This document shows positions 16,251-61,091 of a stretch of 64,000 nt of DNA, piece by piece. Made by a program: the position numbers and the translations under genes. Origin of the DNA: an uncultured Pseudomonadales bacterium (GTDB lineage Bacteria > Patescibacteriota > Microgenomatia > UBA1400 > CAYXSR01). Each line of letters starts with the position of its first letter. Position 1 is the stretch's first letter. The DNA is taken from the NCBI GenBank assembly GCA_964467735.1, contig CAYXSR010000003.1, positions 1,078-65,077 on the forward strand, in the 5' to 3' direction. The notes beneath the pieces were generated by a model. It was given only the letters and a program-made list of their open reading frames with translations, was not told where the DNA came from and made no database searches.

Positions 16251-17423
16251 ATGAAAAAAAAAGCTTTAATTTTTACCAGTACGTGTGGACATTTAAGTCT
16301 TGCTAAAGCTATTGGAGATATTCTTAAACAAAACAATTGGCAACCAGAATTAGTTGATCTTATAAACAATCAAAGTGATTTTTCTCATAATACTGATGTC
16401 TTTTATAAATCTTTTTATTTATATTTTCCTTCTTTATTTAAAATTCCTTTCAAATTTAGCCAACAAAAATTTCTCCAAAAAGAGATTAAAAATTTTCTCA
16501 AAAGAAATTATCAAAAAACCATTGAAGAAAAACTTAATAAAATCCAACCTAACTTAATAATTACTACTTATTTTGCTTATAACTATCCCTTGGTAAATAT
16601 TATTAAACAAAAAGTTCCTTTTTTAAATATTCCCGCCGATCCCCTTACTTTTCATCCTTTGGAAATAGAACCCCAAGCAGATTTTAATTTTATTTATGAT
16701 AAACAAGCCAAAAAAATCTGCCAGAAGCTAGGAGTTTCTGATGAGAAAATAAAAGTCTCCGGCTGGTTTGTTCAAAAAAAATTCTATAACACTAAGCCAG
16801 ATAAAAAACTTTTGAAAATTTTAAATTTTAAATCAAACGTTTTAACCATTCTTATTTGTGGGGGATCTGAAGGAGCAAATTCTATTTTAAAAATTATACC
16901 CATTCTTTTAGTCACTAAAAAACCTCTCCAATTGATTGTCGTCTGTGGTAATAATGCTGTTCTTTTTAAAGCTTTAAATAGTTTCAAAAAAACGTTTATT
17001 AAGATTCCTTCTGGTTTGTCCAAAAATAGAATCAAGCTAAAAATAATTCAAAAAACTAACAAAATGGCTGATTTTATGGCGCTGGCTGATCTTGTAATTG
17101 GTAAGGCTGGCCCAAATCTTTTATTTGAATCAGTAGCTAGTGGTAAGCCTTTTTTTGCTATTTGTCATATTAGCGGCCAAGAAGATGGCAATTTAGAAAT
17201 TATTAGAAAGAAAAAACTTGGCTTTGTTGAAGAAAATCCTTTAAGAGCGATTACTCTTCTTAAAAAAATTATTGACAATCCAACAGTTCTCCATCGGTTT
17301 CAGAAAGAAGTTAAAAAAGAACGGCAACGGAATCAACAGGCAGAAAAAATCCTAATGGAAACAATTAATTCTCTTCAGCTACCATTAAGCCGCCAAAACT
17401 CAACAAATACGAAGATAAAATAA
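16251..17423 (+). CDS. MGDG-synthase/UgtP-like (GT28-type) diacylglycerol glycosyltransferase
   Basis: 390 aa. The N-terminal 'ALIFTSTCGHLSLAKAIGD' and C-terminal 'GKAGPNLLFESVASGKPF' patterns are typical of monogalactosyl-diacylglycerol synthase-type glycosyltransferases. Confidence 0.65.
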   Translation: MKKKALIFTSTCGHLSLAKAIGDILKQNNWQPELVDLINNQSDFSHNTDVFYKSFYLYFPSLFKIPFKFSQQKFLQKEIKNFLKRNYQKTIEEKLNKIQPNLIITTYFAYNYPLVNIIKQKVPFLNIPADPLTFHPLEIEPQADFNFIYDKQAKKICQKLGVSDEKIKVSGWFVQKKFYNTKPDKKLLKILNFKSNVLTILICGGSEGANSILKIIPILLVTKKPLQLIVVCGNNAVLFKALNSFKKTFIKIPSGLSKNRIKLKIIQKTNKMADFMALADLVIGKAGPNLLFESVASGKPFFAICHISGQEDGNLEIIRKKKLGFVEENPLRAITLLKKIIDNPTVLHRFQKEVKKERQRNQQAEKILMETINSLQLPLSRQNSTNTKIK

Positions 17424-18346
17424 AATAAAATAAGCAGTGCTCCTTCCCAACGTTCGAGCTTCTTTTTTGTCCGGACAAAAAACCAGAAAATAGCAAAAAT
17501 TAATACAAAAGCTACACTCGCTAGTAAATAAACTTTAAAGCCTCCATCTAAATATATTGGTCTAATTAAAGCTGTTAAACCTAAAATTAATGTAGAATTA
17601 GCCACAATACTTCCCAGTAAGTCTCCAAAAACCATACTCACTTGTTTTTTAGTTATTGCTCTTAATTCAAAAGATAACTCTGGCAAACTTGTCCCAACAG
17701 CAACTAAAAAAAGACCAATTAACATAACCGGAACTCCAAAGCTTCCGGCTAGTAATACCGCTATTTTTACAAGATTATCAGCACTAAAAATCAAAAGCGC
17801 CGCTCCAAAAAAAATCCAAGCTAGGTGACGCTCAACATGATTATATCCAATTCTGCGTAAAAACTTTCTAGGACTGGTCTTTCTTTTTAAAGCTCTTCTC
17901 TCGCTTCTTAAAAGAGTAAAATTATATACTCCATAAATTGTTATTAACAATAAACCTTCTACTTGGGTTAATTTATCATCCATTAATAAAAGCAAAGGTA
18001 GAATTCCTGCCAAAAAAGCATAAAAAATATCCTGTTTTAAAAAATCTCCCACTACCGCAACAGAGCCGCCAACTAAAGCTGCTCCGCCAATTACTAAAGA
18101 AACATTGGCAATATTTGAACCCAAAATATTTCCCAAAGCTAAATTCTGTTGTCTTTCCAAAGCGGCGGTAATGCCAACAAAAAGCTCAGGAAGAGATGTC
18201 GCTAAAGCCAGTAAAAAAGAAGTCAGGGCAAATTTATCAATTCCAGAGGCTCTTGATAAACGATTTAAAGCTCCTACTAAAATTTCGGTCGATTTTATAA
18301 GTAAAAAAGAAAAGAAAACCATTAAAAGCAAATAAACTAAAAGCAT
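17375..18346 (-). CDS. Ca2+/Na+ antiporter (CaCA family, YrbG-like)
   Basis: Two alpha-repeat signatures 'GNILGSNIANVSLVIG' and 'GDLLGSIVANSTLILG' in a 10-TM protein. Confidence 0.8.
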   Translation of the reverse strand: MLLVYLLLMVFFSFLLIKSTEILVGALNRLSRASGIDKFALTSFLLALATSLPELFVGITAALERQQNLALGNILGSNIANVSLVIGGAALVGGSVAVVGDFLKQDIFYAFLAGILPLLLLMDDKLTQVEGLLLITIYGVYNFTLLRSERRALKRKTSPRKFLRRIGYNHVERHLAWIFFGAALLIFSADNLVKIAVLLAGSFGVPVMLIGLFLVAVGTSLPELSFELRAITKKQVSMVFGDLLGSIVANSTLILGLTALIRPIYLDGGFKVYLLASVAFVLIFAIFWFFVRTKKKLERWEGALLILFYFIFVFVEFWRLNGS

Positions 18347-18532
18347 ATTCTTATAGTAGCAAATTTTTTAATCTTTAAAAACAGCCGTCTTTTTTGGACA
18401 AAAAAAAGACCCTCATTTCCCCAGCTAAGTAACTAACTTGTGTTCTTCTCGCTTTTCAGCAAGAAAAAAACAAATCAGCACTCGCCGATCAATGGGAAAT
18501 AAGGGCCATCAATAAAGATCTACGGGAAAACT

Positions 18533-20251
18533 CTAGTGGTTTCGCACCAGCATAGGCAGATAAAGCTTGTTCGGTAAGGCAAGGCCGCTCACTACACGGA
18601 ACCCATTGCTATAACCTTCTACGGTGATTGAACACCGTCCGAAGATGAACAACATTGGTTCTTGGTAGCCAACGGCTACCGTAGTCGCCGTGAACACTGC
18701 GCGAGATTCGGGTATTGGCCAAATATTCCTATAGGGTCTAAAACCCACAATCGAGCCGCCCAGCTCAACGATTTCCTCTCCGCACTCCATATCCCATGGA
18801 GTAAAGAAAGGTGGATTGCCCCAATCATCCTCGATTGCTGCAGTCCAGGTAAAAACCGTGTGAATTTGAACTTCGGAAGGAATCTCCGCCCGCAAGTGTG
18901 TTGCCCGGCCGCCCGGCCGAACCATCAAAAAATGCTTACTTCCAACCCCTTGCCAAGTGAAAGGAATGGTGTAGGTAACGACCTGTCCCGTGGAATTTGG
19001 CGAATCCCAGTAAATAACCGCCGTCTCACCTGACACTGGAGGACTGAACTCTCCCCATTCCATCTCATACCATTTTTCCGGAGAAGATAGAGTTATCTGA
19101 CCCCCATCGCTAAATGTCGCCGTCACTGGTAAGTTTACCAGGTTTTCAAGTTGTCCCCGATAAAACTGCTTGCTGGTACCCTCGATAGCCACCGGGTATG
19201 GCGGTTCTGGCGTCGAGGTTGGCGGCACTGGCGTGGTTGGTGTCGGGGTTGGCTCTTCCGTCCGAAATTCCACTTGTACCGGCAAGCTGCCGGTCACCCA
19301 ATGAGCTAGTTTCGGTGAGTACCACTCGTACTCGATATCCACCGAATAGTTCCCGGGTTGGGCCCCGACTACCTCAAGCATTCCTGTAATGATCTGGCCA
19401 CCGGCCAAAGTGGTCCAAGAAAAGCTTCCGGTGACCGTCACGCCCGCTGGCGCGTTGACGCTGATCCACCCATAGTAACCTGGTAACACCTCGCTGCACG
19501 GCTCCTCCACTGCTTGGGTGGAAGAGATATAGAAGCTATTCCAGTCAGTGAAGTGGACAAAAGTGCCGTTCCAGCTTCCATCCGTTCCCAAGGCGATATC
19601 TCCAAACAAATTGAGGTTATTTTGGCTAGGATCCTCTCCTACCAAAATAGTGTAGTGCTGGTTCCCCTCTCCGTGCGAAAGAATCGCCTGTTGACGCGCA
19701 GCAGTGTAAGGATCACTCGGGTGCGTCGGCTCCCCGTCGCCCACCAAGACCATCCTCCGCTGATCAATCCCCCCGCAGGTGGCCAGTTCACTCCGAGACA
19801 ACTGAATTGCCTCGGCAATGTTAGTCCATCCGCTGGGAGAAACTCCGGTGAGCGCCTGTGCTACTGCGCTAGGATCCGGCGCTCCCATTGGCAGAAGCAC
19901 GCTGGCGGCATCATTGAACACGATATACGCTGCTCTTGCTGATTGACTGATAATTCCTGTGTATTCGACTACTGCTTGCGTAGCCGTATACCAGGAGCCT
20001 GACATGGAGCCCGAGCGATCTAGAACTATGGTTTCGCAGCTTGGAGCCCTACACATCCCGCTCGTGGCCGAAAAGGCCTCAGCTCTAATAATGATCGTTG
20101 CTGTCAGCGGCCAGTTTACTGGATTCGAACTGGCACTCCAGGTCACTGTCCCTTCCTGCGCCGCAATCGGCGCCGAAAAGGCTAACAAAACCAATACCGA
20201 AAGCGTAATGCCACCCAAAAGACTTGCCAACAAACTCCAATACTTCTTCAC
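18533..20251 (-). CDS. secreted von Willebrand factor A (VWA) domain protein with Pro/Thr-rich linker, encoded in a high-GC island
   Basis: MIDAS motif 'IVLDRSGSMSG'. Likely GTG start at 20251, preceded by a GGAGG Shine-Dalgarno; signal peptide KKYWSLLASLLGGITLSVLVLLAFSAPIAAQ; PT-rich linker 'EEPTPTPTTPVPPTSTPEPP'. The local GC is far above the flanks. Confidence 0.7.
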   Translation of the reverse strand: MKKYWSLLASLLGGITLSVLVLLAFSAPIAAQEGTVTWSASSNPVNWPLTATIIIRAEAFSATSGMCRAPSCETIVLDRSGSMSGSWYTATQAVVEYTGIISQSARAAYIVFNDAASVLLPMGAPDPSAVAQALTGVSPSGWTNIAEAIQLSRSELATCGGIDQRRMVLVGDGEPTHPSDPYTAARQQAILSHGEGNQHYTILVGEDPSQNNLNLFGDIALGTDGSWNGTFVHFTDWNSFYISSTQAVEEPCSEVLPGYYGWISVNAPAGVTVTGSFSWTTLAGGQIITGMLEVVGAQPGNYSVDIEYEWYSPKLAHWVTGSLPVQVEFRTEEPTPTPTTPVPPTSTPEPPYPVAIEGTSKQFYRGQLENLVNLPVTATFSDGGQITLSSPEKWYEMEWGEFSPPVSGETAVIYWDSPNSTGQVVTYTIPFTWQGVGSKHFLMVRPGGRATHLRAEIPSEVQIHTVFTWTAAIEDDWGNPPFFTPWDMECGEEIVELGGSIVGFRPYRNIWPIPESRAVFTATTVAVGYQEPMLFIFGRCSITVEGYSNGFRVVSGLALPNKLYLPMLVRNH

Positions 20252-20629
20252 CGCTTGACCTCCTACATTTTGAGAGCCTTTTGGCTCGGCGGGTAAACAC
20301 TGTTTAACTGTCTTTTCCATTTTCTTTTTTCTCCTTATTGTGAAAGGTTACGAAAAAATTCAGCAATTTCTTGCCCCAATCATAATCACCAAAATCAGTT
20401 TGATAACTATAATTGGAGCAAGAAAAACCATAAAAAGGAGAAAAGTTTTCCCGTATGTTGTTTTGAAATCTGTTTTTAAAGCCGCTTTTAGCTTTTAAAC
20501 AAATTCCAAACCAATTTTTTCAAAGTACATATGTCTTATAGTTTTTTACTATAATACATATTAGGGGTGTATTTTACCACAAAAATGCAATAAAAACGAA
20601 TAAAACTATAGAATTAAAAAGGAGTTATT

Positions 20630-23152
20630 TTAGCCTGTTTTAGGGCGATGATTACGAAGAAAAGCCCATTTTACAGCTTCTATGCCTAAAACCGTCAAAA
20701 AAGCCTTAAAAATTATTAAAATCCAAAAGTAGGGATGTAAGGGTACTGTTTTTAAGATTAGGTTAAAAAAAGGCAGATACACTCCAACAAAAAGCATCAC
20801 AAATCCTATTCCTACACTAAATATTAAAAAAGTATTAGAAAAAATATTTTCATGCCAGATGTTTTTTCTAAGTGTCTTGCAAGAAAAAATATATAAAAGG
20901 GAGTCCATTGCTAAACCAGCAAAAATGATTGTCCTTATTACTTCTAAGGACAATTGTATCTTCAATAAAAATAAAAATATTAGTAACAGAAGAAAGTCTG
21001 CCATTAGACCAATGATAAAAATTATTATTTTTATTTCTCTATCTAAAATAGAAATATGTTTCGGCCGAGGTGGATCATCCATTAATCCCTCATCTTTTGG
21101 TTCGAAAGCTAAGGCCAAACCTGGCAATCCATCTTCAACTAAATTTACCCAAAGAATTTGGGCTGGTAATAAAGGGCTTGGTAACCCCAGTAAAAGACTT
21201 CCGCCAATTAAAACTACTTCGGTAAAACTATCAGATAAAAGATATAAAACAACTTTTTTAATATTTTCAAAAATCCCTCTTCCTTCCTCTACTGCCGCCA
21301 CAATTGTTTTAAAGTTTGAGTCCAATAAAACCATATCTGCCGTTTCTTTAGCTACTTCTGAAGCTTCTCCTACCACCACTCCAATATCCGATTTTTTTAA
21401 AGCCAATGCATCGTTTACCCCATCACCCATCATCGCCACAGAATGGCCTTTAGTTTGAAGTGCCTCAACAATTCTTATTTTTTGTTCTGGTGTTGTCCGA
21501 ACAAATAAAACGATTTCATCAATTCTATGAATCAACTCCTCTTCAGAAATCTTTTCTAATTCCCATCCTTCCATAATTTGTTCATCTCTAATATCCCCGT
21601 CATTTATTTCTAATCTATCTAGAATTGCCCGTGCAGTATTTAGGTAATCTCCGGTGATAACTTTTACTTCAATTCCAGCTTTCTTACATAATTGCAAAGA
21701 TTCCTTTACTTCTGTTCTTACTGGATCCTCAAACAATAATAAACCTAACCACTCTAATTTAAAATTCTTCCAAACAGATTTTGTTTTATTACCATAGCCT
21801 CCAAGTTTTTTTAATTTAGTAAAGATGCTCTTCATTTTTTTCAAATTTCCGCTGGTATAGCTAAAAGCGACTACTCGAAGCCCTTTTTTAGTGAAATGGT
21901 CGAGCTTAGTCAACCATTTCTCTTTGTCTTTTTTGCTCAGATCAGACATTTCCATAACCATTTCCGGGGCACCCGATAAAAAAATATCAGCTTTTGGTGG
22001 TGATTTCTGTCTGTTTAAAGTAGCAATAAATTTCTTTTCCGAAGAAAAAGGAATTTCATCAACTCTAGAATTTGCCAATAAAAGATTTTCTCCATCTGAT
22101 TTTAATTTTGCTTTAGCCCAATCCATCATCGCTATTTCTAATGGATTAATCATATTGTTACACAATATTGCCCCTTTTATTCCTTTAGTCTTGTTAACAA
22201 ATTCTGCCTCTACCACTCTCATTTTCCCTTCAGTCAAAGTACCTGTTTTATCGGTACAAATAACATCGACTGAACCTAATGTTTCGGCCGCCAAGAGCTT
22301 ACGTACCAAACTTTTTCTCTGTAAAATTCTTTGCATTCCTAAAGTTAAAATAACTGTTAAAGAAACTACTAAGCCTTCTGGAATAGCGGCTACAGCCACT
22401 GCCACTGATAAAGTAAAAATTTCAATAAAACTTCTCCCTCGCCAAAGGCCTTCAAAAAAAATAATGACACAAATCAAGCTAAAAATAATTGCTAAGACTT
22501 TTGAAAATTTAGCAATTTGTTTTTTAAGAGGTGTTTCTTCTTCGTCAGTCTTCTCAAGTTTACCAGCAATTTTTCCCATTTTTGTTAATAAACCCGTCTT
22601 TGTTACCTTCATTTTTCCTCTACCTGAAACTATTACTGTTCCCATAAATACTTCTTGCTTTATATTTTTTTTCACTGGCGCACTTTCTCCAGTTAAAATC
22701 GCCTCGTTTATATGAATATCTACTTCTTTTAGTAAAACACCATCAACCGGCACTTTATCTCCAGTTGACAAAATTACTACATCACCAGGCACTAATTTTG
22801 TGGCTTCAATTATGTCTTGTTTCCCATCTCTAATAACCTTTGCATGAGGAACTAATAGATCTTTTAAAGCAATTAAGGCTTTTTCTGCTTTAAATTCCTG
22901 AGCAAAACCTAAAATTGTATTTACTCCCACAGCCATAAAAATAACAACTGAATCTGTCCATTCTTTTAGAAATAAAGTAATTAAACCAGCAAAAAACAAA
23001 ATGTAGATTAATGGGGAAGAAAATTGATTAAATAAAAGTTTTAGCCAACGAACTCTCTTTTTAAGACTAATTTCATTAAGTCCATATTTTTCTAATCTTT
23101 TTTTTGCTTCTTGAGAAGTAAGACCAACGGAATCTATTTTTGACTCATTCAT
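20630..23152 (-). CDS. P-type cation-transporting ATPase (P2-type, Ca2+/Mg2+-like)
   Basis: 840 aa with the phosphorylation motif 'CTDKTGTLT', the hinge 'MMGDGVNDALALKKSDIGV', the TGES-like 'LTGES' and 10 TM helices. Confidence 0.9.
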   Translation of the reverse strand: MNESKIDSVGLTSQEAKKRLEKYGLNEISLKKRVRWLKLLFNQFSSPLIYILFFAGLITLFLKEWTDSVVIFMAVGVNTILGFAQEFKAEKALIALKDLLVPHAKVIRDGKQDIIEATKLVPGDVVILSTGDKVPVDGVLLKEVDIHINEAILTGESAPVKKNIKQEVFMGTVIVSGRGKMKVTKTGLLTKMGKIAGKLEKTDEEETPLKKQIAKFSKVLAIIFSLICVIIFFEGLWRGRSFIEIFTLSVAVAVAAIPEGLVVSLTVILTLGMQRILQRKSLVRKLLAAETLGSVDVICTDKTGTLTEGKMRVVEAEFVNKTKGIKGAILCNNMINPLEIAMMDWAKAKLKSDGENLLLANSRVDEIPFSSEKKFIATLNRQKSPPKADIFLSGAPEMVMEMSDLSKKDKEKWLTKLDHFTKKGLRVVAFSYTSGNLKKMKSIFTKLKKLGGYGNKTKSVWKNFKLEWLGLLLFEDPVRTEVKESLQLCKKAGIEVKVITGDYLNTARAILDRLEINDGDIRDEQIMEGWELEKISEEELIHRIDEIVLFVRTTPEQKIRIVEALQTKGHSVAMMGDGVNDALALKKSDIGVVVGEASEVAKETADMVLLDSNFKTIVAAVEEGRGIFENIKKVVLYLLSDSFTEVVLIGGSLLLGLPSPLLPAQILWVNLVEDGLPGLALAFEPKDEGLMDDPPRPKHISILDREIKIIIFIIGLMADFLLLLIFLFLLKIQLSLEVIRTIIFAGLAMDSLLYIFSCKTLRKNIWHENIFSNTFLIFSVGIGFVMLFVGVYLPFFNLILKTVPLHPYFWILIIFKAFLTVLGIEAVKWAFLRNHRPKTG

Positions 23153-23191
23153 ATTTTAATACTAACAGAAGGTTAAAGCTTTGGGCAATTA

Positions 23192-24958
23192 TTATTTGTT
23201 CGTGCTAGCTAATTTTTCAAGTTCTTTTAACGAAATTGACTCTTGTGATTTCTTATCATCTCTAAATCTTTTTAAACGAGGAAATCTTAAAGCTAATCCA
23301 GCTGTATGAATTGGTGATTTAGTAATGGTATCTGCCTCAATTTCTACAACTAATTCTGGTTTACACCAAATATCAGGTCTTAAATTTTTATCAATTTTGT
23401 ATTCTTTTGGTTGATCTTTTATTTTTATTTTTTCACAGCGTTCATACATTTCTCTCCATTGCTCATCAGTTAACCCAGTGCCAATTTTAGAAACGCTTAA
23501 AATTTGATTTTTCGAAATAATCCCAACTAAAAATGCTCCAATACCGAATGATGCTCTTTTTCCTTTTCCCCGATAATAACCCATTACTATACAATCGATT
23601 GTATCTGCGAGTTCTGATTTCATTCCTGCTTTATACTTTACCCAGTTATAATTCCGACTACCAGCCTGATAGACAGCATTAATTTTTTTTGCCATCAAAC
23701 CCTCTAAACCTTCGCCGACAACCTGTTTGAAAAAAACATCAAAATCTTTCGCTTTACTGACTATCTTTTGTTCAGTTAAAATAATCCCTTTTTCTTCACC
23801 TTTGCTCTTATTTAAAACTTCTTCTAATAGCTTCCGCCTGTTCTTAAAAGAGTCTAACAGTAAGGCTTGATTATTCAAAAAAAGTAAATCAAAAACAAAA
23901 ACTTTTAAGGGTAGTTCTTTAATTTTCTTTCCTATCCCGTGTTTTCTTTTTCGCTGAACTGTTTCTTGGAAAGGCAAAAAATCGCCAGTTTTAGGATTAT
24001 AAGCAATTGCTTCACCATCCAAAATTGCATTTTTAATTTTTAACTTATAGGCTGCTTCAACAATGTCTGGAAACATGTGAGTTGTATTTTCTAGATTTCT
24101 GGAAAAAATTCTAACAAAAAATTGTTTTTTACCTTGAAAAAGGTTTAAGTTAGTGTCTTTCTTCAAACTCATTTTTTTTGTTTTATCAATATGAATTTGA
24201 CAACGAAAACCATCATATTTTGGCTCTAAGGCACATTTACCATCCATTTTTTCTAAAATTTTGCTTGGCTCTGTTAGTCTTTCAGCTAAAGCAGCTCGAA
24301 TCGGTGTTCCAATTTCACTTTTTATTTTCTTTATTCCATTTATTCCCTTCCCTTTAAAAATTCTAGCTATTTTGCCAATATCAGCCAAAACATTAAAAGC
24401 TTTTTCCAAGTCTTTCCGTAATGATTTATCCCCTTTTTTCATCCAAGATAGGGCATCCAAAATTGTCATATCAGAAAATCCCAAACGAAGTTTATTTACT
24501 GGCATTCTTACTATATATTTACCGCTCAAAGAGTCTAAACTATCCAAAAGTTGGGTAGTTTCTTTTATCTTTCTTTCTACTGAACCCTCACCTGAATCTT
24601 GAGCAATTTCTAATAATTTTTGGTAAACAGCCGTCACTGTCAATTTAGATTTTTTTGTTTTCGGTTTTAAGTTATAGAATAGATCTCCTAAGTCTCCTGT
24701 TTTTTTGAATTCTTTGGTTACTTTTTTTTCATCTCCTTTTAAAGATCGAGCAATACTTCTAATTACCATTTTTTCTGCCATATTAAACTCAATTCCTTCA
24801 TATTTTGGCGCCAATTGACCTCGACAAAGATAACAGACTTTATCAATCTCTTCTGGAGGACAACTCTTAAACAATTTTGCCAAAATCTCAGTCATTTGGT
24901 TTCGAGAAGCAGTTTTTTCTAATTGGAAAAAAAATGAAGCCAGCTGTTGAAACAACAT
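23192..24958 (-). CDS. lig: ATP-dependent DNA ligase (archaeal/eukaryal type)
   Basis: Adenylation motif I 'EPKYDGFRCQIH' (KxDGxR) plus an OB-fold region; 588 aa. Confidence 0.85.
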   Translation of the reverse strand: MLFQQLASFFFQLEKTASRNQMTEILAKLFKSCPPEEIDKVCYLCRGQLAPKYEGIEFNMAEKMVIRSIARSLKGDEKKVTKEFKKTGDLGDLFYNLKPKTKKSKLTVTAVYQKLLEIAQDSGEGSVERKIKETTQLLDSLDSLSGKYIVRMPVNKLRLGFSDMTILDALSWMKKGDKSLRKDLEKAFNVLADIGKIARIFKGKGINGIKKIKSEIGTPIRAALAERLTEPSKILEKMDGKCALEPKYDGFRCQIHIDKTKKMSLKKDTNLNLFQGKKQFFVRIFSRNLENTTHMFPDIVEAAYKLKIKNAILDGEAIAYNPKTGDFLPFQETVQRKRKHGIGKKIKELPLKVFVFDLLFLNNQALLLDSFKNRRKLLEEVLNKSKGEEKGIILTEQKIVSKAKDFDVFFKQVVGEGLEGLMAKKINAVYQAGSRNYNWVKYKAGMKSELADTIDCIVMGYYRGKGKRASFGIGAFLVGIISKNQILSVSKIGTGLTDEQWREMYERCEKIKIKDQPKEYKIDKNLRPDIWCKPELVVEIEADTITKSPIHTAGLALRFPRLKRFRDDKKSQESISLKELEKLASTNK

Positions 24959-24965
24959 ATCTTTA

Positions 24966-26039
24966 TCAATGACTTAAAAAATAATGAGCCGCTTTAGTTT
25001 TGCCTTTCTTCTTCAATATACCTTTTTTCATTAGGTCTTTCAAATCTCGGAGAATGGTATCTTCAGAGACCATTGGTAAAATTTTTCTTGCCTCTCTCAT
25101 GAATAATTTTTCATTACTTTTAAGATATTCAACAATAGTTATTTGTCTTTCAGAAAGAGCAATCTGTCTGCCAAGCCGATCGCGAAATTTTTTATCCAAA
25201 GAAAGTTGTTTTACCTTCTCTTTTACACGAGTCAGTTCAATCGCCAAGGCTTCAGTAAAATATTCAAGCCAACCTGTTAAATCGCCTTTTAAGTGCTCAA
25301 CAGACTGTAAAGCATAATAATAAGCGGCGGCATCTTTATCAAAATGTTCCTCAATTGAAAAAAGCCGGCGGATATCATAGTCTTCTGCAAAAAGAATTAA
25401 GGTCGCAAATGCCCGGGCTACTCGACCATTACCATCAATAAAAGGATGAATTCTAGCCAATTCATAATGAGCAATTCCTGCTCTTAAAACCGGATGAATA
25501 TCTCTTGATGTTGATGAATTAAGCCATTTAAAAAAATCCTCCATTTGAAACGAAACTTCGATGGCTAGTGGTGGCCGGAAAGCTACCTCTCCAGTAATTC
25601 CATTTCTAATTACCACTTGCGTATTTCTATATTTTCCAGATCTATCCTCTGATAAAATTTTTTCAACTGTTTTTTTATGAATCTCTTTTAGTGTTTTTTG
25701 TTTATAAGTAATCTTTTCGTTCTTTTTTAATTTTTTAGCTTCTTTTTTTCCTAATTTACCGATTAATTGTAAAACGTTGCGATAATTAATAATTTCTTGA
25801 ATATCTCTTTCACGACCCGTTACCTCTTCTCCTTCAATCACTTTTTTTGCTTGAGTAAAAGAAAGTTCGTTACCTTCTATATGAGTTCCGTAATGAATTG
25901 TTCTTATTTGGGCTTCTTTTTGAAATTGAGCTTCCCAAGCAGGAATTAAAGGAGCCTCATTGATAATCTCCTTACAAGCTTCAATGACGCCAATACTTTT
26001 AAGAACTTTATTGGTAATCTTAAATTTTGGAGAAAACAT
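24966..26039 (-). CDS. Fic/Doc family protein (adenylyltransferase-type) with C-terminal wHTH-like region
   Basis: Canonical Fic motif 'HPFIDGNGRVARAF'; 357 aa. Confidence 0.85.
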   Translation of the reverse strand: MFSPKFKITNKVLKSIGVIEACKEIINEAPLIPAWEAQFQKEAQIRTIHYGTHIEGNELSFTQAKKVIEGEEVTGRERDIQEIINYRNVLQLIGKLGKKEAKKLKKNEKITYKQKTLKEIHKKTVEKILSEDRSGKYRNTQVVIRNGITGEVAFRPPLAIEVSFQMEDFFKWLNSSTSRDIHPVLRAGIAHYELARIHPFIDGNGRVARAFATLILFAEDYDIRRLFSIEEHFDKDAAAYYYALQSVEHLKGDLTGWLEYFTEALAIELTRVKEKVKQLSLDKKFRDRLGRQIALSERQITIVEYLKSNEKLFMREARKILPMVSEDTILRDLKDLMKKGILKKKGKTKAAHYFLSH

Positions 26040-26085
26040 AATTTGGTTTAATAATTATTGCACAAATTGCGGAAAAAGCCAATCA

Positions 26086-26655
26086 TCAGGAACTAAAGTT
26101 TATTTGTTCTATCGGAAAATACTGAGATCCTAAACGAGATAACTTACTTTCATAAATCTTTATATTATCGATTAATATTTTACTTTTAAAATTAAGTTCC
26201 CTTAAGGCCTTCATTTGTCGACCGATTTCTTTCCTTTGAGCTACTCTTACTCTCTTAATCCTACCTAAAGTAATATGGGGTGTAAAAAGTTTATCACTAA
26301 TCTTAAACCCTTTGTTTTTTAACTTTTTATTAATTGTTTTTTGTAAGAAAGCGAGTCTTTTTAAATCACCTTTTAAACCAATCCAAATAATTCTGGGCCA
26401 GTCAAAATCAGGAAAAACACCTAAACCTTTAAATAAAAGTATGAACGGTTGGGTTTCTCTGACTACTTGTCTACAAATTTTTTTTATTTCTAGCAATTTC
26501 TCTTTTTCAATATTTCCTAAAAAAACTAAAGTCTGATGAAGTTTATCGGGCTTTTCCCATCTAACATCCCAACCCTTTTTTGATAGTTTTTTTAAAAGCT
26601 GCTCTATTTCTTTTTTGGCTTGATCAGACAAGTCAACGCTAATAAAAACTCTCAT
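26086..26655 (-). CDS. thpR: RNA 2',3'-cyclic phosphodiesterase (2H phosphoesterase, LigT/ThpR)
   Basis: Two H-x-T/S-x motifs, 'HQTLVFLG' and 'HITLGR', at the expected spacing in a 189-aa protein. Confidence 0.75.
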   Translation of the reverse strand: MRVFISVDLSDQAKKEIEQLLKKLSKKGWDVRWEKPDKLHQTLVFLGNIEKEKLLEIKKICRQVVRETQPFILLFKGLGVFPDFDWPRIIWIGLKGDLKRLAFLQKTINKKLKNKGFKISDKLFTPHITLGRIKRVRVAQRKEIGRQMKALRELNFKSKILIDNIKIYESKLSRLGSQYFPIEQINFSS

Positions 26656-26664
26656 TTAGATAAA

Positions 26665-27885
26665 TTATGCTCCGTAAAGTTCTGACCTCCCCAAAAGATC
26701 AATAATAATTGGCATTATATTTACGCCTCTTAATTGACCTAAACCACCTTGAACACAGTCTCTCTCACCAAAGGAGCTGACTTTATCTGTCCTAACAGAT
26801 TTGTTCCAAATCAAAACTGGCACTGGATCAGCACTGTGAGCTTTCAACTCACAAGGCGTAGTATGATCAGCGGTTATTACTATTAGGGCATCTTTCAATT
26901 GTGTTAAGAGTTCTATCGCCTGATCAATTTTCTCAATAAACTCTTTTTTTGCTTGACAGTTACCATCCTCCCCTAAAGTATCTGCTCCTTTAAAATGAAC
27001 AAAAAAGAAATCAAATTTACTATATACTTTCTTTAACTCGTCAATTTTAACTTTAAGATTAGAGTCTGGTTTTCCAGTTGCTCCTTTTAAATCTGGGGTT
27101 ACCATTCCTAATATTTTCCCTATTCCCTTATAAAGACCAGCACCTGCTAGGCAAACAGCTTTCAAACCATATTTTTCCTCAAAAGAGGGCAGTTCGGGAA
27201 AAACACCAGCTCCGCGAACTAAAATGAAATTAGCTGGTAATTTTCCAGCTTTCTCTCTTTGTTTATTAGAAGGTAAATCTTTTAATTTCTCATGAGTTAA
27301 TTTTAAAAATTTATTTAAAACCGCGGCAGTAAAATCTGCTTCTTTACTACCATCAGTACCTTTTACTTTATGAACCTTTTCACCTACCTCATGAGGATCA
27401 GCATCAATTATTTTTGAGCTTAAACCTTTTCCTCTCATTATTAACCCTACTCGGTGACCAGTTCCTTTTTTAAGTAAAAAGACTACTCCATCAACTACCA
27501 TTCCGTTAAAAAGATTAGCAAATTCAGAAGTATCATCAATTCTTCCTGCTCGCCTATCAATTACTGTCATTTTCTCGTCTACTGTTCCCATATTCGCTCG
27601 GAAACAAATATCTCCTGGCTTCATTTCCATATTAATGCCCGCAGTTTCAAAAGGACCCCTGCCAGTATAGTAAATCTTGGGATCATAACCAAATAAACCC
27701 AAATGAGAAGTGTCACTTCCCGGCCGAATACCAATTCCTACAGTGTGGACTAAACCACAAATTCCTTCTTTAGCTAAACGATCTAGGTTGGGTGTATTGG
27801 CGGCCTCTAAAGGAGTTTTTCCTCCAAGGTCTTGAATCGGTCGATCGCCCAGCCCATCACAAACAATGAAAATTACTTTAGTCAT
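26665..27885 (-). CDS. apgM: 2,3-bisphosphoglycerate-independent phosphoglycerate mutase, archaeal type
   Basis: 'MTKVIFIVCDGLGDRP' is the ApgM N-terminal metal-binding motif; the start is taken at this internal Met (the 27969 start overlaps eno). Alkaline-phosphatase-superfamily body. Confidence 0.85.
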   Translation of the reverse strand: MTKVIFIVCDGLGDRPIQDLGGKTPLEAANTPNLDRLAKEGICGLVHTVGIGIRPGSDTSHLGLFGYDPKIYYTGRGPFETAGINMEMKPGDICFRANMGTVDEKMTVIDRRAGRIDDTSEFANLFNGMVVDGVVFLLKKGTGHRVGLIMRGKGLSSKIIDADPHEVGEKVHKVKGTDGSKEADFTAAVLNKFLKLTHEKLKDLPSNKQREKAGKLPANFILVRGAGVFPELPSFEEKYGLKAVCLAGAGLYKGIGKILGMVTPDLKGATGKPDSNLKVKIDELKKVYSKFDFFFVHFKGADTLGEDGNCQAKKEFIEKIDQAIELLTQLKDALIVITADHTTPCELKAHSADPVPVLIWNKSVRTDKVSSFGERDCVQGGLGQLRGVNIMPIIIDLLGRSELYGA

Positions 27886-37351: not shown

Positions 37352-37437
37352 CTTCCCCCTCCCTTCTTAATCAAACTTCTTAATCTTATTAAGATTATCT
37401 CAACTCAGACAATCCAAATAACGAAGATTATTATAAG

Positions 37438-37510
37438 TGACAGGGGTGGGAGTTGAACCCACGACCGCCGGTTTATGAGTCCGGTGCTCTACCAACTGAG
37501 CTACCCTGCC
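37438..37510 (-). tRNA. tRNA-Met (anticodon CAT; elongator or Ile-lysidine type not distinguishable)
   Basis: Reverse complement GGCAGGGTAGCTCAGTTGGTAGAGCACCGGACTCATAAACCGGCGGTCGTGGGTTCAACTCCCACCCCTGTCA folds as a cloverleaf with a GGTTCAACTCC T-arm; CCA is not encoded. Confidence 0.85.
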
Positions 37511-37642
37511 TTAAAATTATTAAATGTATCAGTTAATAATCTAAATACTTAACAGCTTATTTTAACAAAACTAGCCTGGAAAATGAAGCTTTGAAAAACT
37601 TTCCTAATTGCCCTTGCTAAAAACTTTTTCTACAATTACATT

Positions 37643-38041
37643 ATGACACCAGTAACACCCGATTTATCTATCAATATTAGCCACACGATCTATGCTATGT
37701 TTATTCATAATTATATTTTGGCCGCCTATCTTTTAGGTCTGTTTATTTCGATAGTCTTGGCGATTAAAAAACCGACGCGATTTACTATCCTTCTTATTTT
37801 AGGCTTTGCTATTTTAGCTTTCTCTTTTGAATATGATAAACATATCGCCGAAGGATTAAGAGAACAAACTCTTCAATCACTAATCACTACTAAACCTCAT
37901 TATCAGGCACAGAAATGGATAAATATAATTATTGGCGAAGTTATGCCGATTTTTCTTTATATTATAGGTTGGCTCTTAATCTATCTTGCAATTATCATTG
38001 CTTGTCTGAAAAATAAAAAAAATGTAGCGGGTTCTAGGTAA
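37643..38041 (+). CDS. hypothetical small membrane protein
   Basis: 132 aa with 3-4 hydrophobic helices. Confidence 0.4.
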   Translation: MTPVTPDLSINISHTIYAMFIHNYILAAYLLGLFISIVLAIKKPTRFTILLILGFAILAFSFEYDKHIAEGLREQTLQSLITTKPHYQAQKWINIIIGEVMPIFLYIIGWLLIYLAIIIACLKNKKNVAGSR

Positions 38042-38100
38042 CGCTCCTAGATTAAGTGAGGTTATGAGCCTCACGGGATACTTACCCCCCACCCGCTATC

Positions 38101-58234: not shown

Positions 58235-58308
58235 GCCAATGTAGCTCAGTTGGTTAGAGCAGCTGTTTTGTAAACAGCAGGTCGTCGGTTCGAATCCGAC
58301 CGTTGGCT
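58235..58308 (+). tRNA. tRNA-Thr (anticodon TGT)
   Basis: GCCAATGTAGCTCAGTTGGTTAGAGCAGCTGTTTTGTAAACAGCAGGTCGTCGGTTCGAATCCGACCGTTGGCT folds as a cloverleaf with the 7-nt loop TTTGTAA and a GGTTCGAATCC T-arm. Confidence 0.85.
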
Positions 58309-58318
58309 CTTATAAAAT

Positions 58319-58402
58319 GCGTAGGTGGCGGAGCAGCAATCGCACCAGTCTGTAAAACTGGCGGTCTAACGGCCTTCGGGGGTGCAAGTCCCTCCCTACG
58401 CA
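58319..58402 (+). tRNA. tRNA-Tyr (anticodon GTA), class II with long variable arm; atypical T-loop
   Basis: Perfect 7-bp acceptor GCGTAGG/CCTACGC; 3-bp D-stem; anticodon arm CCAGT-CTGTAAA-ACTGG; variable hairpin GGTC-TAAC-GGCC. The T-arm is GGGGG-TGCAAGT-CCCTC (G at position 55). Confidence 0.6.
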
Positions 58403-58434
58403 CAAATATGAGAGAAATACTAAATCGTCGTACT

Positions 58435-58860
58435 ATGGCTTATATAAAGGCCCTTATTCCTTTAGCACTACTAATGGTTACTGCTCCTCTTAGCGCTGAA
58501 GGAGAATGTCCTCAAAATGGAGTAGTTTTTTACGGCGAACCCGATTTTGTTTGTAGCCAAACAGATCCTGGTTTTATTCAAATGATTGAAACAAGAGAAA
58601 TTACTAATATACCTCCAGATCTTGGAATTTCTTCTTTTAAAATACCCTCTGGTTCTGTTCTAGTTTCTGATCATCCTGATCTTGGAGGTATGCATATATG
58701 CGTAGAAGGAGATGATCCTGATCTTTCTGATAATTTTGTAACTGATCCTAAAGGAGGAGTCATTATATTAAACGACAATATTAGGTCTGCTGAAGCCTTT
58801 ATCGAACCAGGATGTCCACAAATAAAGATCTTTCTACCAATAGTGATAAGAGAAAATTAA
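58435..58860 (+). CDS. small secreted hypothetical protein
   Basis: Signal peptide MAYIKALIPLALLMVTAPLSAEG after the tRNAs. The ORF-track start at 58303 runs through the tRNAs and is rejected. Confidence 0.4.
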   Translation: MAYIKALIPLALLMVTAPLSAEGECPQNGVVFYGEPDFVCSQTDPGFIQMIETREITNIPPDLGISSFKIPSGSVLVSDHPDLGGMHICVEGDDPDLSDNFVTDPKGGVIILNDNIRSAEAFIEPGCPQIKIFLPIVIREN

Positions 58861-60692: not shown

Positions 60693-60696
60693 ATTG

Positions 60697-61091
60697 TGGA
60701 GATGGGGAGAAATGAACTCCCGTCCGAAAAGGTTCTTTTTAAACTTCTACAAGCTTAGTCCGTTTTTTATCCTAAAGAGAGAAACGAACAACCCTTTAAC
60801 CTTCAGGAAATGGTCTTATGCTCCTTCTAAAGCCGACCAACTTTAGAATGATGCCCTGAGTGGGTTTTCACTCTAACTAATCCCCCAGGGAAGACGAGCT
60901 AGAATGCCAGCTTAGGCTGTAAAAGCTAAAGCCGGTTGGCCAAAAAGGGCTAGCTTAACGCTTTCCCAGACTTCGGCCAATTTGTCAGAAATTTTGCTGA
61001 CAGTTATGTTTTGATTCTGTTTAACTCCGATGAATCAACGGAGGCTTGCTGTTTTCAAAGAACAATCTTCCCGTCGAATCTATTCATCCCC
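60697..61091 (-). ncRNA. ssrA: tmRNA (ssrA)
   Basis: The minus-strand RNA starts GGGGAUGAAUAGAUUCGACGGG (consensus GGGGxUGxxxxxAUUCGACGGG) and ends …GGACGGGAGUUCAUUUCUCCCCAUCUCCA (T-arm plus 7-bp acceptor pairing with the 5' end). About 395 nt, GC-richer than the surroundings, lying 3 nt downstream of smpB. Confidence 0.8.

Follow-up and report, generated by a model that had tools for sequence, protein, structure and literature searches.

Genes that reach bacterial genomes singly are known from the islets of Lawrence and Ochman, in which the deviation of GC content, of GC at third codon positions (GC3) and of tetranucleotide usage is confined to one gene. Bacterial secreted VWA proteins place a domain of ~165-190 amino acids (aa), with the five residues of a metal-ion-dependent adhesion site (MIDAS), behind a signal peptide, and NCBIfam describes, by models of 10-11 positions, a short C-terminal motif, the YLP-box. 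All these descriptions bear on one gene in a 64,000-nucleotide stretch of DNA (the window; positions 1,078 to 65,077 of contig CAYXSR010000003.1, assembly GCA_964467735.1) from a low-GC bacterium of the Microgenomates type, within the candidate phyla radiation (CPR; Patescibacteria). The gene lies between, and is co-oriented with, the genes for a CaCA exchanger (17375-18346, minus strand) and a P-type cation ATPase (20630-23152, minus strand). The reading that we favor, with a probability of roughly 0.78, is that this is a single foreign gene which was inserted by horizontal transfer from a bacterium in, or related to, a rare lineage using YLP-boxes and which encodes an exported, surface-binding MIDAS protein.

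The first line of evidence is composition. A 500-bp scan of the window reveals one excursion only, with a GC content of 0.51-0.55 at 18501-20000 and 0.26-0.40 elsewhere, and the windowed profile holds no second excursion in 64 kb. At finer resolution, GC climbs from ~0.25-0.35 to 0.45-0.65 solely inside ~18476-20293, the interval bounded by the cumulative-GC change-points at 18475 and 20293; in a 100-bp profile, the rise coincides with the open reading frame (ORF) at 18533-20320 (minus strand), and the DNA is AT-rich again at 20321-20629 and beyond ~18475. The island is the gene itself, with 309 bp of AT-rich DNA upstream and ~130 bp downstream. The ORF has 53.2% GC, compared with 32.8% in the rest of the window (z = 9.6 relative to equal-sized windows, the highest other one reaching 0.397), and is foreign in composition at each codon position, with 0.537 (GC1), 0.503 (GC2) and 0.555 (GC3), whereas GC3 is 0.15-0.31 in the 53 other long ORFs of the window. 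The tetranucleotide usage of the island correlates with the background at 0.02, as opposed to at least 0.90 for all other 1.8-kb windows (distance z = 12.6), and the encoded protein differs from its neighbors in being poor in Lys (1.7% vs 10.2%) and rich in Pro (7.9% vs 3.9%) and Trp (3.2% vs 1.2%). The original prediction, made from the letters alone, of a high-GC island with foreign codon usage and amino-acid composition is borne out by these values, and the windowed GC, GC3 and tetranucleotide check that it proposed yields this single excursion in 64 kb, with no similar ones. Its accompanying claim that long antisense ORFs are peculiar to the island fails: ORFs of 199 aa (20859-21458, plus strand) and 274 aa (21891-22715, plus strand) lie opposite the 33% GC ATPase gene, long for AT-rich sequence and presumably non-coding. 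The runner-up 500-bp windows (GC 0.41-0.42) take in the tRNA-Thr/Tyr cluster near 58.2 kb.

The second line of evidence is the empty site in relatives. One genome per GTDB species was scanned with the ATPase, which yielded 80 loci; those with specific and plausible record titles belong to Microgenomates-type CPR/Patescibacteria, the best match being Candidatus Beckwithbacteria (68% identity). The order ligase-ATPase-CaCA(-MGDG synthase) is preserved in 28 loci; in these, the distance from the ATPase stop to the CaCA start is about -21 to +150 bp (mostly 0-44 bp when read directly), and tblastn finds no homologue of the island gene. The closest of the loci with readable upstream DNA (L090, CaCA 72% identical) has an empty site with a 7-nt spacer; the closest public CaCA homologue, 75% identical, lies on a contig that is cut inside the gene. 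In relatives, ATPase and CaCA form a tight, operon-like pair. Conservation of this pair throughout the group fixes the insertion site precisely, and because 28 relatives show direct ATPase-CaCA adjacency and none of them holds the gene, it is best read as an insertion specific to this lineage. Given that the relatives have almost no spacer, the ~440-500 bp of AT-rich sequence on the two sides of the gene is likewise lineage-specific.

The relatives of the protein itself are few. A word-indexed search of 5.8 billion proteins returned only the island protein, and HMMER, run exhaustively against 1.84 billion cluster representatives, returned 291 matches, all except two of them (289) generic VWA proteins at ~30% identity. 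The C-terminal domain is shared only with P0004 (433 aa, E = 1.8e-37, aligned over the C-terminal 233 aa, 363-595) and the fragment P0005, at 35-39% identity; the family thus counts three members among ~15 billion public proteins. P0004 has the same order of parts, namely, signal peptide, a DxSGSMS VWA domain (which scores under the Pfam thresholds), linker, C-terminal domain and terminal YLPxxxRNH, without the middle beta-domain (aa ~225-350). The contigs of P0004 and P0005 have 56-62% GC (56-58% for P0004), the genes themselves have 60-64% GC, with GC3 of 0.70 and 0.80 and GC2 of 0.475 and 0.52, and the neighbors of P0004 (LacI, an ABC transporter, a histidine kinase, ThuA, LysW) make up a context of the free-living type. 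The lower GC1 and GC3 of the window gene fits a donor of ~52% GC or partial amelioration from ~60%. No closer relative came to light in GTDB genome contigs, in IMG/VR viral contigs, in JGI metagenome contigs (searched with a protein pattern and a degenerate DNA pattern) or, by blastn, among plasmids and phages. The donor search that had been suggested along with the prediction names no donor lineage, its best match being the 35-39% identity over the C-terminal 233 aa only.

These observations also bear on the possibility that the gene is an old resident, the composition of which has been kept by selection on a Gly/Ala/Pro/Thr/Trp-rich sequence and which the sampled relatives have lost. GC2 is high in the window gene (0.50) and also in P0004 and P0005 (0.475-0.52), and hence characterizes the family; amino-acid content does account for some of the GC excess. 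However, the protein sequence cannot explain a GC3 of 0.555 vs ~0.22, many independent losses would be needed, each leaving a spacer of ~0-150 bp, and no CPR homologue is found among the 1.84 billion representatives, so that we consider this explanation hardly credible. Horizontal transfer remains the preferred reading. In the predicted recent horizontal acquisition, the transfer is strongly supported by the empty site in 28 CPR loci and by relatives found only in contigs of 56-62% GC; the word "recent" has the unameliorated GC3 as its one support, and no donor lineage has been named.

The ORF is intact, and the features of its product (Table 1) suggest an exported binding protein; of the predicted features, the MIDAS motif and the Pro/Thr-rich linker are recovered, as is a signal-peptide-like hydrophobic segment. 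The hydrophobic segment ends in PIAAQ, and the VWA domain is recognized above the gathering thresholds by both VWA_2 (PF13519; 40.2 bits, cut-off 27, E = 5.8e-10) and VWA (PF00092; 27.7 bits, cut-off 23.8, E = 3.7e-6). The residues D101-R-S103-G-S105, T166 (in GWTNI) and D195 (in VGDGE) align with DKSGS, GETYI and LTDGK of anthrax toxin receptor 2 (CMG2), the VWA domain of which is the closest solved structure by sequence; by this alignment, the MIDAS is complete (DxSxS + T + D). In a low-confidence structural model, helices and strands alternate over aa 73-253. When the middle and C-terminal domains were compared with PDB by profile and by sequence, no match was significant, the best being antibody V-domains at E = 0.05. 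Export via the Sec pathway is predicted, the MIDAS, carried on a stalk made up of the beta-domain and the Pro/Thr-rich linker, would bind a ligand outside the cell, and an adhesin or surface-binding role in a presumably host-dependent bacterium seems most plausible. We found no usable literature on CPR VWA adhesins.

On the start of the gene, the original prediction needs qualification. The GTG codon and the GGAGG motif that it named both exist, and a start at GTG 20251 gives a classical MKKYW signal peptide, but an in-frame ATG at 20320, located 69 nt upstream and preceded by an AAGGAG of its own, is a rival. The change-point at 20293 separates the two, GTG and GGAGG lying in foreign-type DNA and ATG in AT-rich DNA; P0004 likewise has an N-terminal extension of ~25 aa ahead of its hydrophobic segment. 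Either ATG 20320 or GTG 20251 is a possible start. The AAGGAG motif is predicted to pair with UUUUCUCCUU (20444-20435) in the outer stem of a hairpin in the 5' flank. The island gene is preceded by two strong Shine-Dalgarno motifs. In the window, such motifs are rare, strong ones being found before only ~3-5 of the 54 ORFs, and many genes (for example, CaCA, ATPase and ligase) have a TATAAT-like (-10-like) box 3-10 nt before the start codon, which suggests leaderless or very short-leader mRNAs in this organism.

A possible clue to the donor lineage lies at the other end of the protein. KLYLPMLVRNH matches both YLP-box models full length; when the C-terminal 27-mer is scanned, NF053834 (ultrashort_CTERM) scores 13.3 bits, with a cut-off of 10, and NF050076 (sort_motif_YLP) scores 13.6 bits, below its cut-off of 15. 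The motif lies at the very C-terminus (aa 585-595 of 595), and the same protein has a hydrophobic segment near its N-terminus (aa 28-55). P0004 and P0005 end in a YLP-box as well, whereas none occurs in the remainder of the 64-kb window or among the 3230 ORFs of 1.4 Mb of DNA from related CPR loci. In the donor lineage, the YLP-box would be a putative sorting signal, whereas the copy in the recipient is probably a relic without function. Motifs of the YLPxxxRN type may be characteristic of Chloroflexota, although this plays no part in the argument here. A literature search for the YLP-box turned up nothing usable.

The location of the gene between two cation transporters invites another explanation, under which the VWA/MIDAS protein became a partner of the ATPase and the CaCA exchanger that binds divalent cations outside the cell, its gene being co-transcribed with theirs. 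MIDAS sites bind divalent cations, and the gene is co-oriented with its neighbors and sits inside a pair that is tight and operon-like in relatives. The association, however, is seen in one genome, and 28 relatives keep the pair without the gene; P0004 adjoins LacI and ABC genes rather than cation transporters; and terminator-like hairpins lie between the gene and its neighbors. The functional calcium link that had been hinted at is not supported, the transporter pair being ancestral and interrupted by the gene in one lineage only, and we rate a calcium module as very improbable.

A high-GC block within a low-GC contig could also be an artefact of assembly, with a segment from another organism spliced into a CPR contig. 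Two contigs of an independent Logan assembly (run SRR14802573) match the window at 100% identity: L001 covers 16648-18411 and L002 covers 20039-27637. In L002, the ATPase gene is continuous with the AT-rich spacer (309 bp) and with 282 bp of the high-GC gene, so that the ATPase-side border of the island has independent support. The exact island protein is recorded only from the NCBI contig, whereas its neighbors are also in Logan, and because L002 stops at 20039 and L001 at 18411, mid-gene and the CaCA-side junction lack such support; a look-up in Logan of the partial product expected past the break gave no match. Yet Logan also breaks away from the island, L001 at 16648 inside the MGDG synthase gene and L002 at 27637, and because its contigs are short throughout the region, breaks near the island carry little weight. 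The end at 18411 falls among the final bases of the 3' arm in the 100-nt hairpin (18507-18408), and that at 20039 falls within the gene, shortly before the MIDAS codons; low coverage, a palindrome or strain variation could account for both. A splice would require two mis-joins, both in one spacer that is normally ~0-150 bp long, and a segment that happens to be co-oriented with its neighbors and leaves both of them intact, and there are no shared k-mers able to mediate a join: in the window, repeats of the AT-rich flanks do not exceed 15 nt and repeats of the island gene do not exceed 18 nt (one mismatch). With both flanks belonging to one syntenic genome, the insert exactly intergenic and one junction crossed by L002, the chimera that the original prediction had offered as an alternative is disfavored, and we regard it as improbable.

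The DNA on either side of the gene complicates the picture of a foreign gene inserted by itself. Both flanks fold far better than shuffled sequence (18347-18532, z = -8.2; 20321-20629, z = -7.3) and are the most strongly folded spacers of the window, the nine other spacers without RNA genes having z values of +0.4 to -2.2 and the spacer that contains the transfer-messenger RNA (tmRNA) -6.2. The 5' flank holds four hairpins, the largest of which (20444-20327) has an outer stem formed by UUUUCUCCUU and the AAGGAG region and an inner stem of 26-27 bp (20424-20399 with 20393-20368). The five mismatches in the 27-bp inner stem are all G-U pairs on the sense strand, which fits selection on RNA structure but could equally come from strand-biased GC-to-AT mutation of a once perfect palindrome. 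The flanks could function as terminators, insulators or a regulatory leader, or they could be what is left of a vehicle. The large 5' hairpin also contains a 23-aa hydrophobic mini-ORF (MVFLAPIIVIKLILVIMIGARNC; 20360-20431, minus strand), the shape of which recalls small membrane toxins of type I toxin-antitoxin loci and which may simply arise from the U-richness of the palindrome. Two perfect inverted pairs of 12 nt on either side of the gene were considered as terminal repeats and rejected, being at chance level (BLAST E 0.5-0.9, shuffles).

If the flanks are remnants of a vehicle, transfer would have involved two steps, the whole 2.28-kb unit having traveled as cargo on an AT-rich vehicle, whether a phage, another CPR genome or a small element that was mobile or had hairpin ends, with the long hairpins as remnants of element ends or recombination sites. 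Under this scenario, it becomes explicable that both flanks are absent from relatives and fold as strongly as they do, and that they are AT-rich while the synonymous sites of the gene are unameliorated, which makes decayed donor DNA an unlikely source. Against this, the flanks have no similarity to each other, and the flanking perfect 12-mers are at chance level; no further copies are found in the window or in the 80 CPR loci; there is no recombinase among the genes scanned in the 64 kb, nothing in the phage, plasmid and viral collections and no Rfam family in the flanks; and terminators or insulators explain the hairpins equally well. We consider such a two-step route unlikely. An integron cassette or an IS200/IS605-type passenger was also considered and is not supported, with no recombinase among the scanned genes and the flanking hairpins unrelated, although this assessment was made without a dedicated attC covariance model.

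Several observations weigh against a simple insertion of one gene from a YLP-box lineage, and these are best considered together. At the insertion, there is no integrase, transposase or recombinase among the 24 neighboring genes scanned, no tRNA target (the nearest tRNA is 17 kb off), and there are no flanking direct repeats or significant terminal inverted repeats above chance. The ~440-500 bp of AT-rich structured DNA is unexplained by the insertion of one gene. The CaCA-side junction (18411-18533), like mid-gene, lies outside the independent Logan contigs. The collections searched contain no donor or close homologue, and the source and direction of transfer rest on composition and synteny. 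At the level of the protein, the whole-protein NCBIfam scan reported neither YLP model at E <=1, and the AlphaFold2 model, built from a 3-sequence alignment, has a pLDDT (predicted local distance difference test score) of 34.7.

Horizontal transfer of a single gene nevertheless appears to us the most likely course of events. The donor would have been a non-CPR bacterium with a moderate or high GC content, in, or kin to, the rare lineage that encodes P0004 and P0005 and uses YLP-box C-terminal motifs. One complete gene, consisting of a Shine-Dalgarno site, the ORF and, possibly, a terminator, would have been inserted into the short ATPase-CaCA spacer of a low-GC Microgenomates-type bacterium, recently enough that synonymous sites remain far from the AT-rich equilibrium of the host genome. 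This would be a clean, well-bounded cross-phylum gene gain in a reduced CPR genome, of a protein from an almost unsampled family and with a putative sorting motif that is foreign to CPR; the taxonomic range of the YLP-box, if established, could hint at the organisms living with this bacterium. A bolder version, which we put forward as speculation and consider doubtful, is that the gene was captured from the host of a presumably episymbiotic Microgenomates bacterium, a host of 55-60% GC that sorts proteins by YLP-boxes, and now serves as a host-derived adhesin, the flanks being a CPR-specific means of insulating or regulating captured genes. If this is true, the captured gene would give a molecular clue to which lineage hosts a CPR group without a known host. 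Otherwise, this is an ordinary single-gene horizontal transfer, to be taken neither for part of a calcium-handling module nor for contamination.

The wider region is made up of core housekeeping genes, including those for EF-P, an aminoacyl-tRNA synthetase, Lgt, enolase and phosphoglycerate mutase as well as RecF, Fpg, FtsH and an ATP-dependent DNA ligase. The CaCA and MGDG-synthase-like genes are convergent, and their 3' ends overlap by 49 bp (17375-17423); the same overlap is called in the Logan contig L001 and in the 72% relative L090. The RNA genes of the window are two tRNA-Met, tRNA-Thr, tRNA-Tyr and a tmRNA (126.8 bits), at 37437-38097, 58235-58403 and 60694-61091; the longest-ORF call at 58303-58860, which overlaps tRNA-Thr/Tyr, is probably either spurious or later-starting. 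Among the contigs with the ligase-ATPase-CaCA order (L005, L006 and many of L007-L077), record titles are mismatched: many of these CPR-type contigs are titled "uncultured Gammaproteobacteria" or "Pseudomonadales", and two short ones are filed under a Nevskiaceae and a Bathyarchaeia metagenome-assembled genome, probably because of mislabelled taxonomy or bin contamination in public records.

Table 1. Features of the island locus, in window coordinates (all on the minus strand)
Feature	Position	Strand	Remarks
Lineage-specific DNA from ATPase stop codon to CaCA start codon, 2283 bp	18347..20629	-	spacer in relatives ~0-150 bp
Compositionally foreign block, ~53% GC	18476..20293	-	cumulative-GC change-points
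ORF, 595 aa from ATG: VWA/MIDAS protein, predicted secreted, with YLP-box C-terminus	18533..20320	-	
AAGGAG Shine-Dalgarno motif, 10 nt upstream of ATG 20320	20331..20336	-	in AT-rich DNA
Alternative start: GGAGG 20263-20259, 7-nt spacer, in-frame GTG 20251-20249 (V24)	20249..20263	-	
Signal-peptide-like hydrophobic segment, aa 28-55 (WSLLASLLGGITLSVLVLLAFSAPIAAQ)	20156..20239	-	helix 19-47 in model; cleavage putative
VWA domain, aa 98-262	19535..20029	-	Pfam profiles
MIDAS residues D101/S103/S105 (20006-20020), T166, D195	within 19535..20029	-	
Beta-rich middle domain, aa ~274-354, without family match	19259..19501	-	absent from P0004
Pro/Thr-rich linker EEPTPTPTTPVPPTSTPEPP, aa 355-374	19199..19258	-	
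C-terminal domain, aa 375-584, beta-rich	18569..19198	-	found otherwise only in P0004 and P0005
YLP-box motif KLYLPMLVRNH, aa 585-595	18536..18568	-	NCBIfam models
100-nt imperfect hairpin 18507-18408 with GAAA loop, then U8 18407-18400	18400..18507	-	terminator-like
Second small hairpin after the U8 element	18410-18387	-	
118-nt nested hairpin of the 5' flank	20327..20444	-	within 309-nt AT-rich leader/spacer

Compared with known systems, the locus shows both departures and clear affinities. Of the two NCBIfam YLP-box models, the island protein is above the cut-off for one only, and that with the C-terminal peptide scanned alone. As a VWA protein, it is only ~30% identical to any other, continues after the VWA domain with a beta-domain that has no match, the Pro/Thr linker and a C-terminal domain that occurs in two more proteins, and its gene does not have BatA/B, MoxR ATPase or pilus partner genes nearby; like bacterial secreted VWA/MIDAS proteins, it aligns at all five MIDAS residues in a domain of typical size after a signal peptide. 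With respect to its mode of arrival, the gene departs from typical islets in lacking a tRNA target, an integrase, direct repeats and an identifiable donor, in having a reduced CPR genome as its recipient, and in being embedded in extra AT-rich, strongly folded DNA. Like horizontally acquired islets in general, it is absent from the syntenic site in relatives and comes with its own ribosome-binding site and a terminator-like hairpin, and, as in the single-gene islets of Lawrence and Ochman, its sharp deviation in GC, GC3 and tetranucleotides is limited to one gene.

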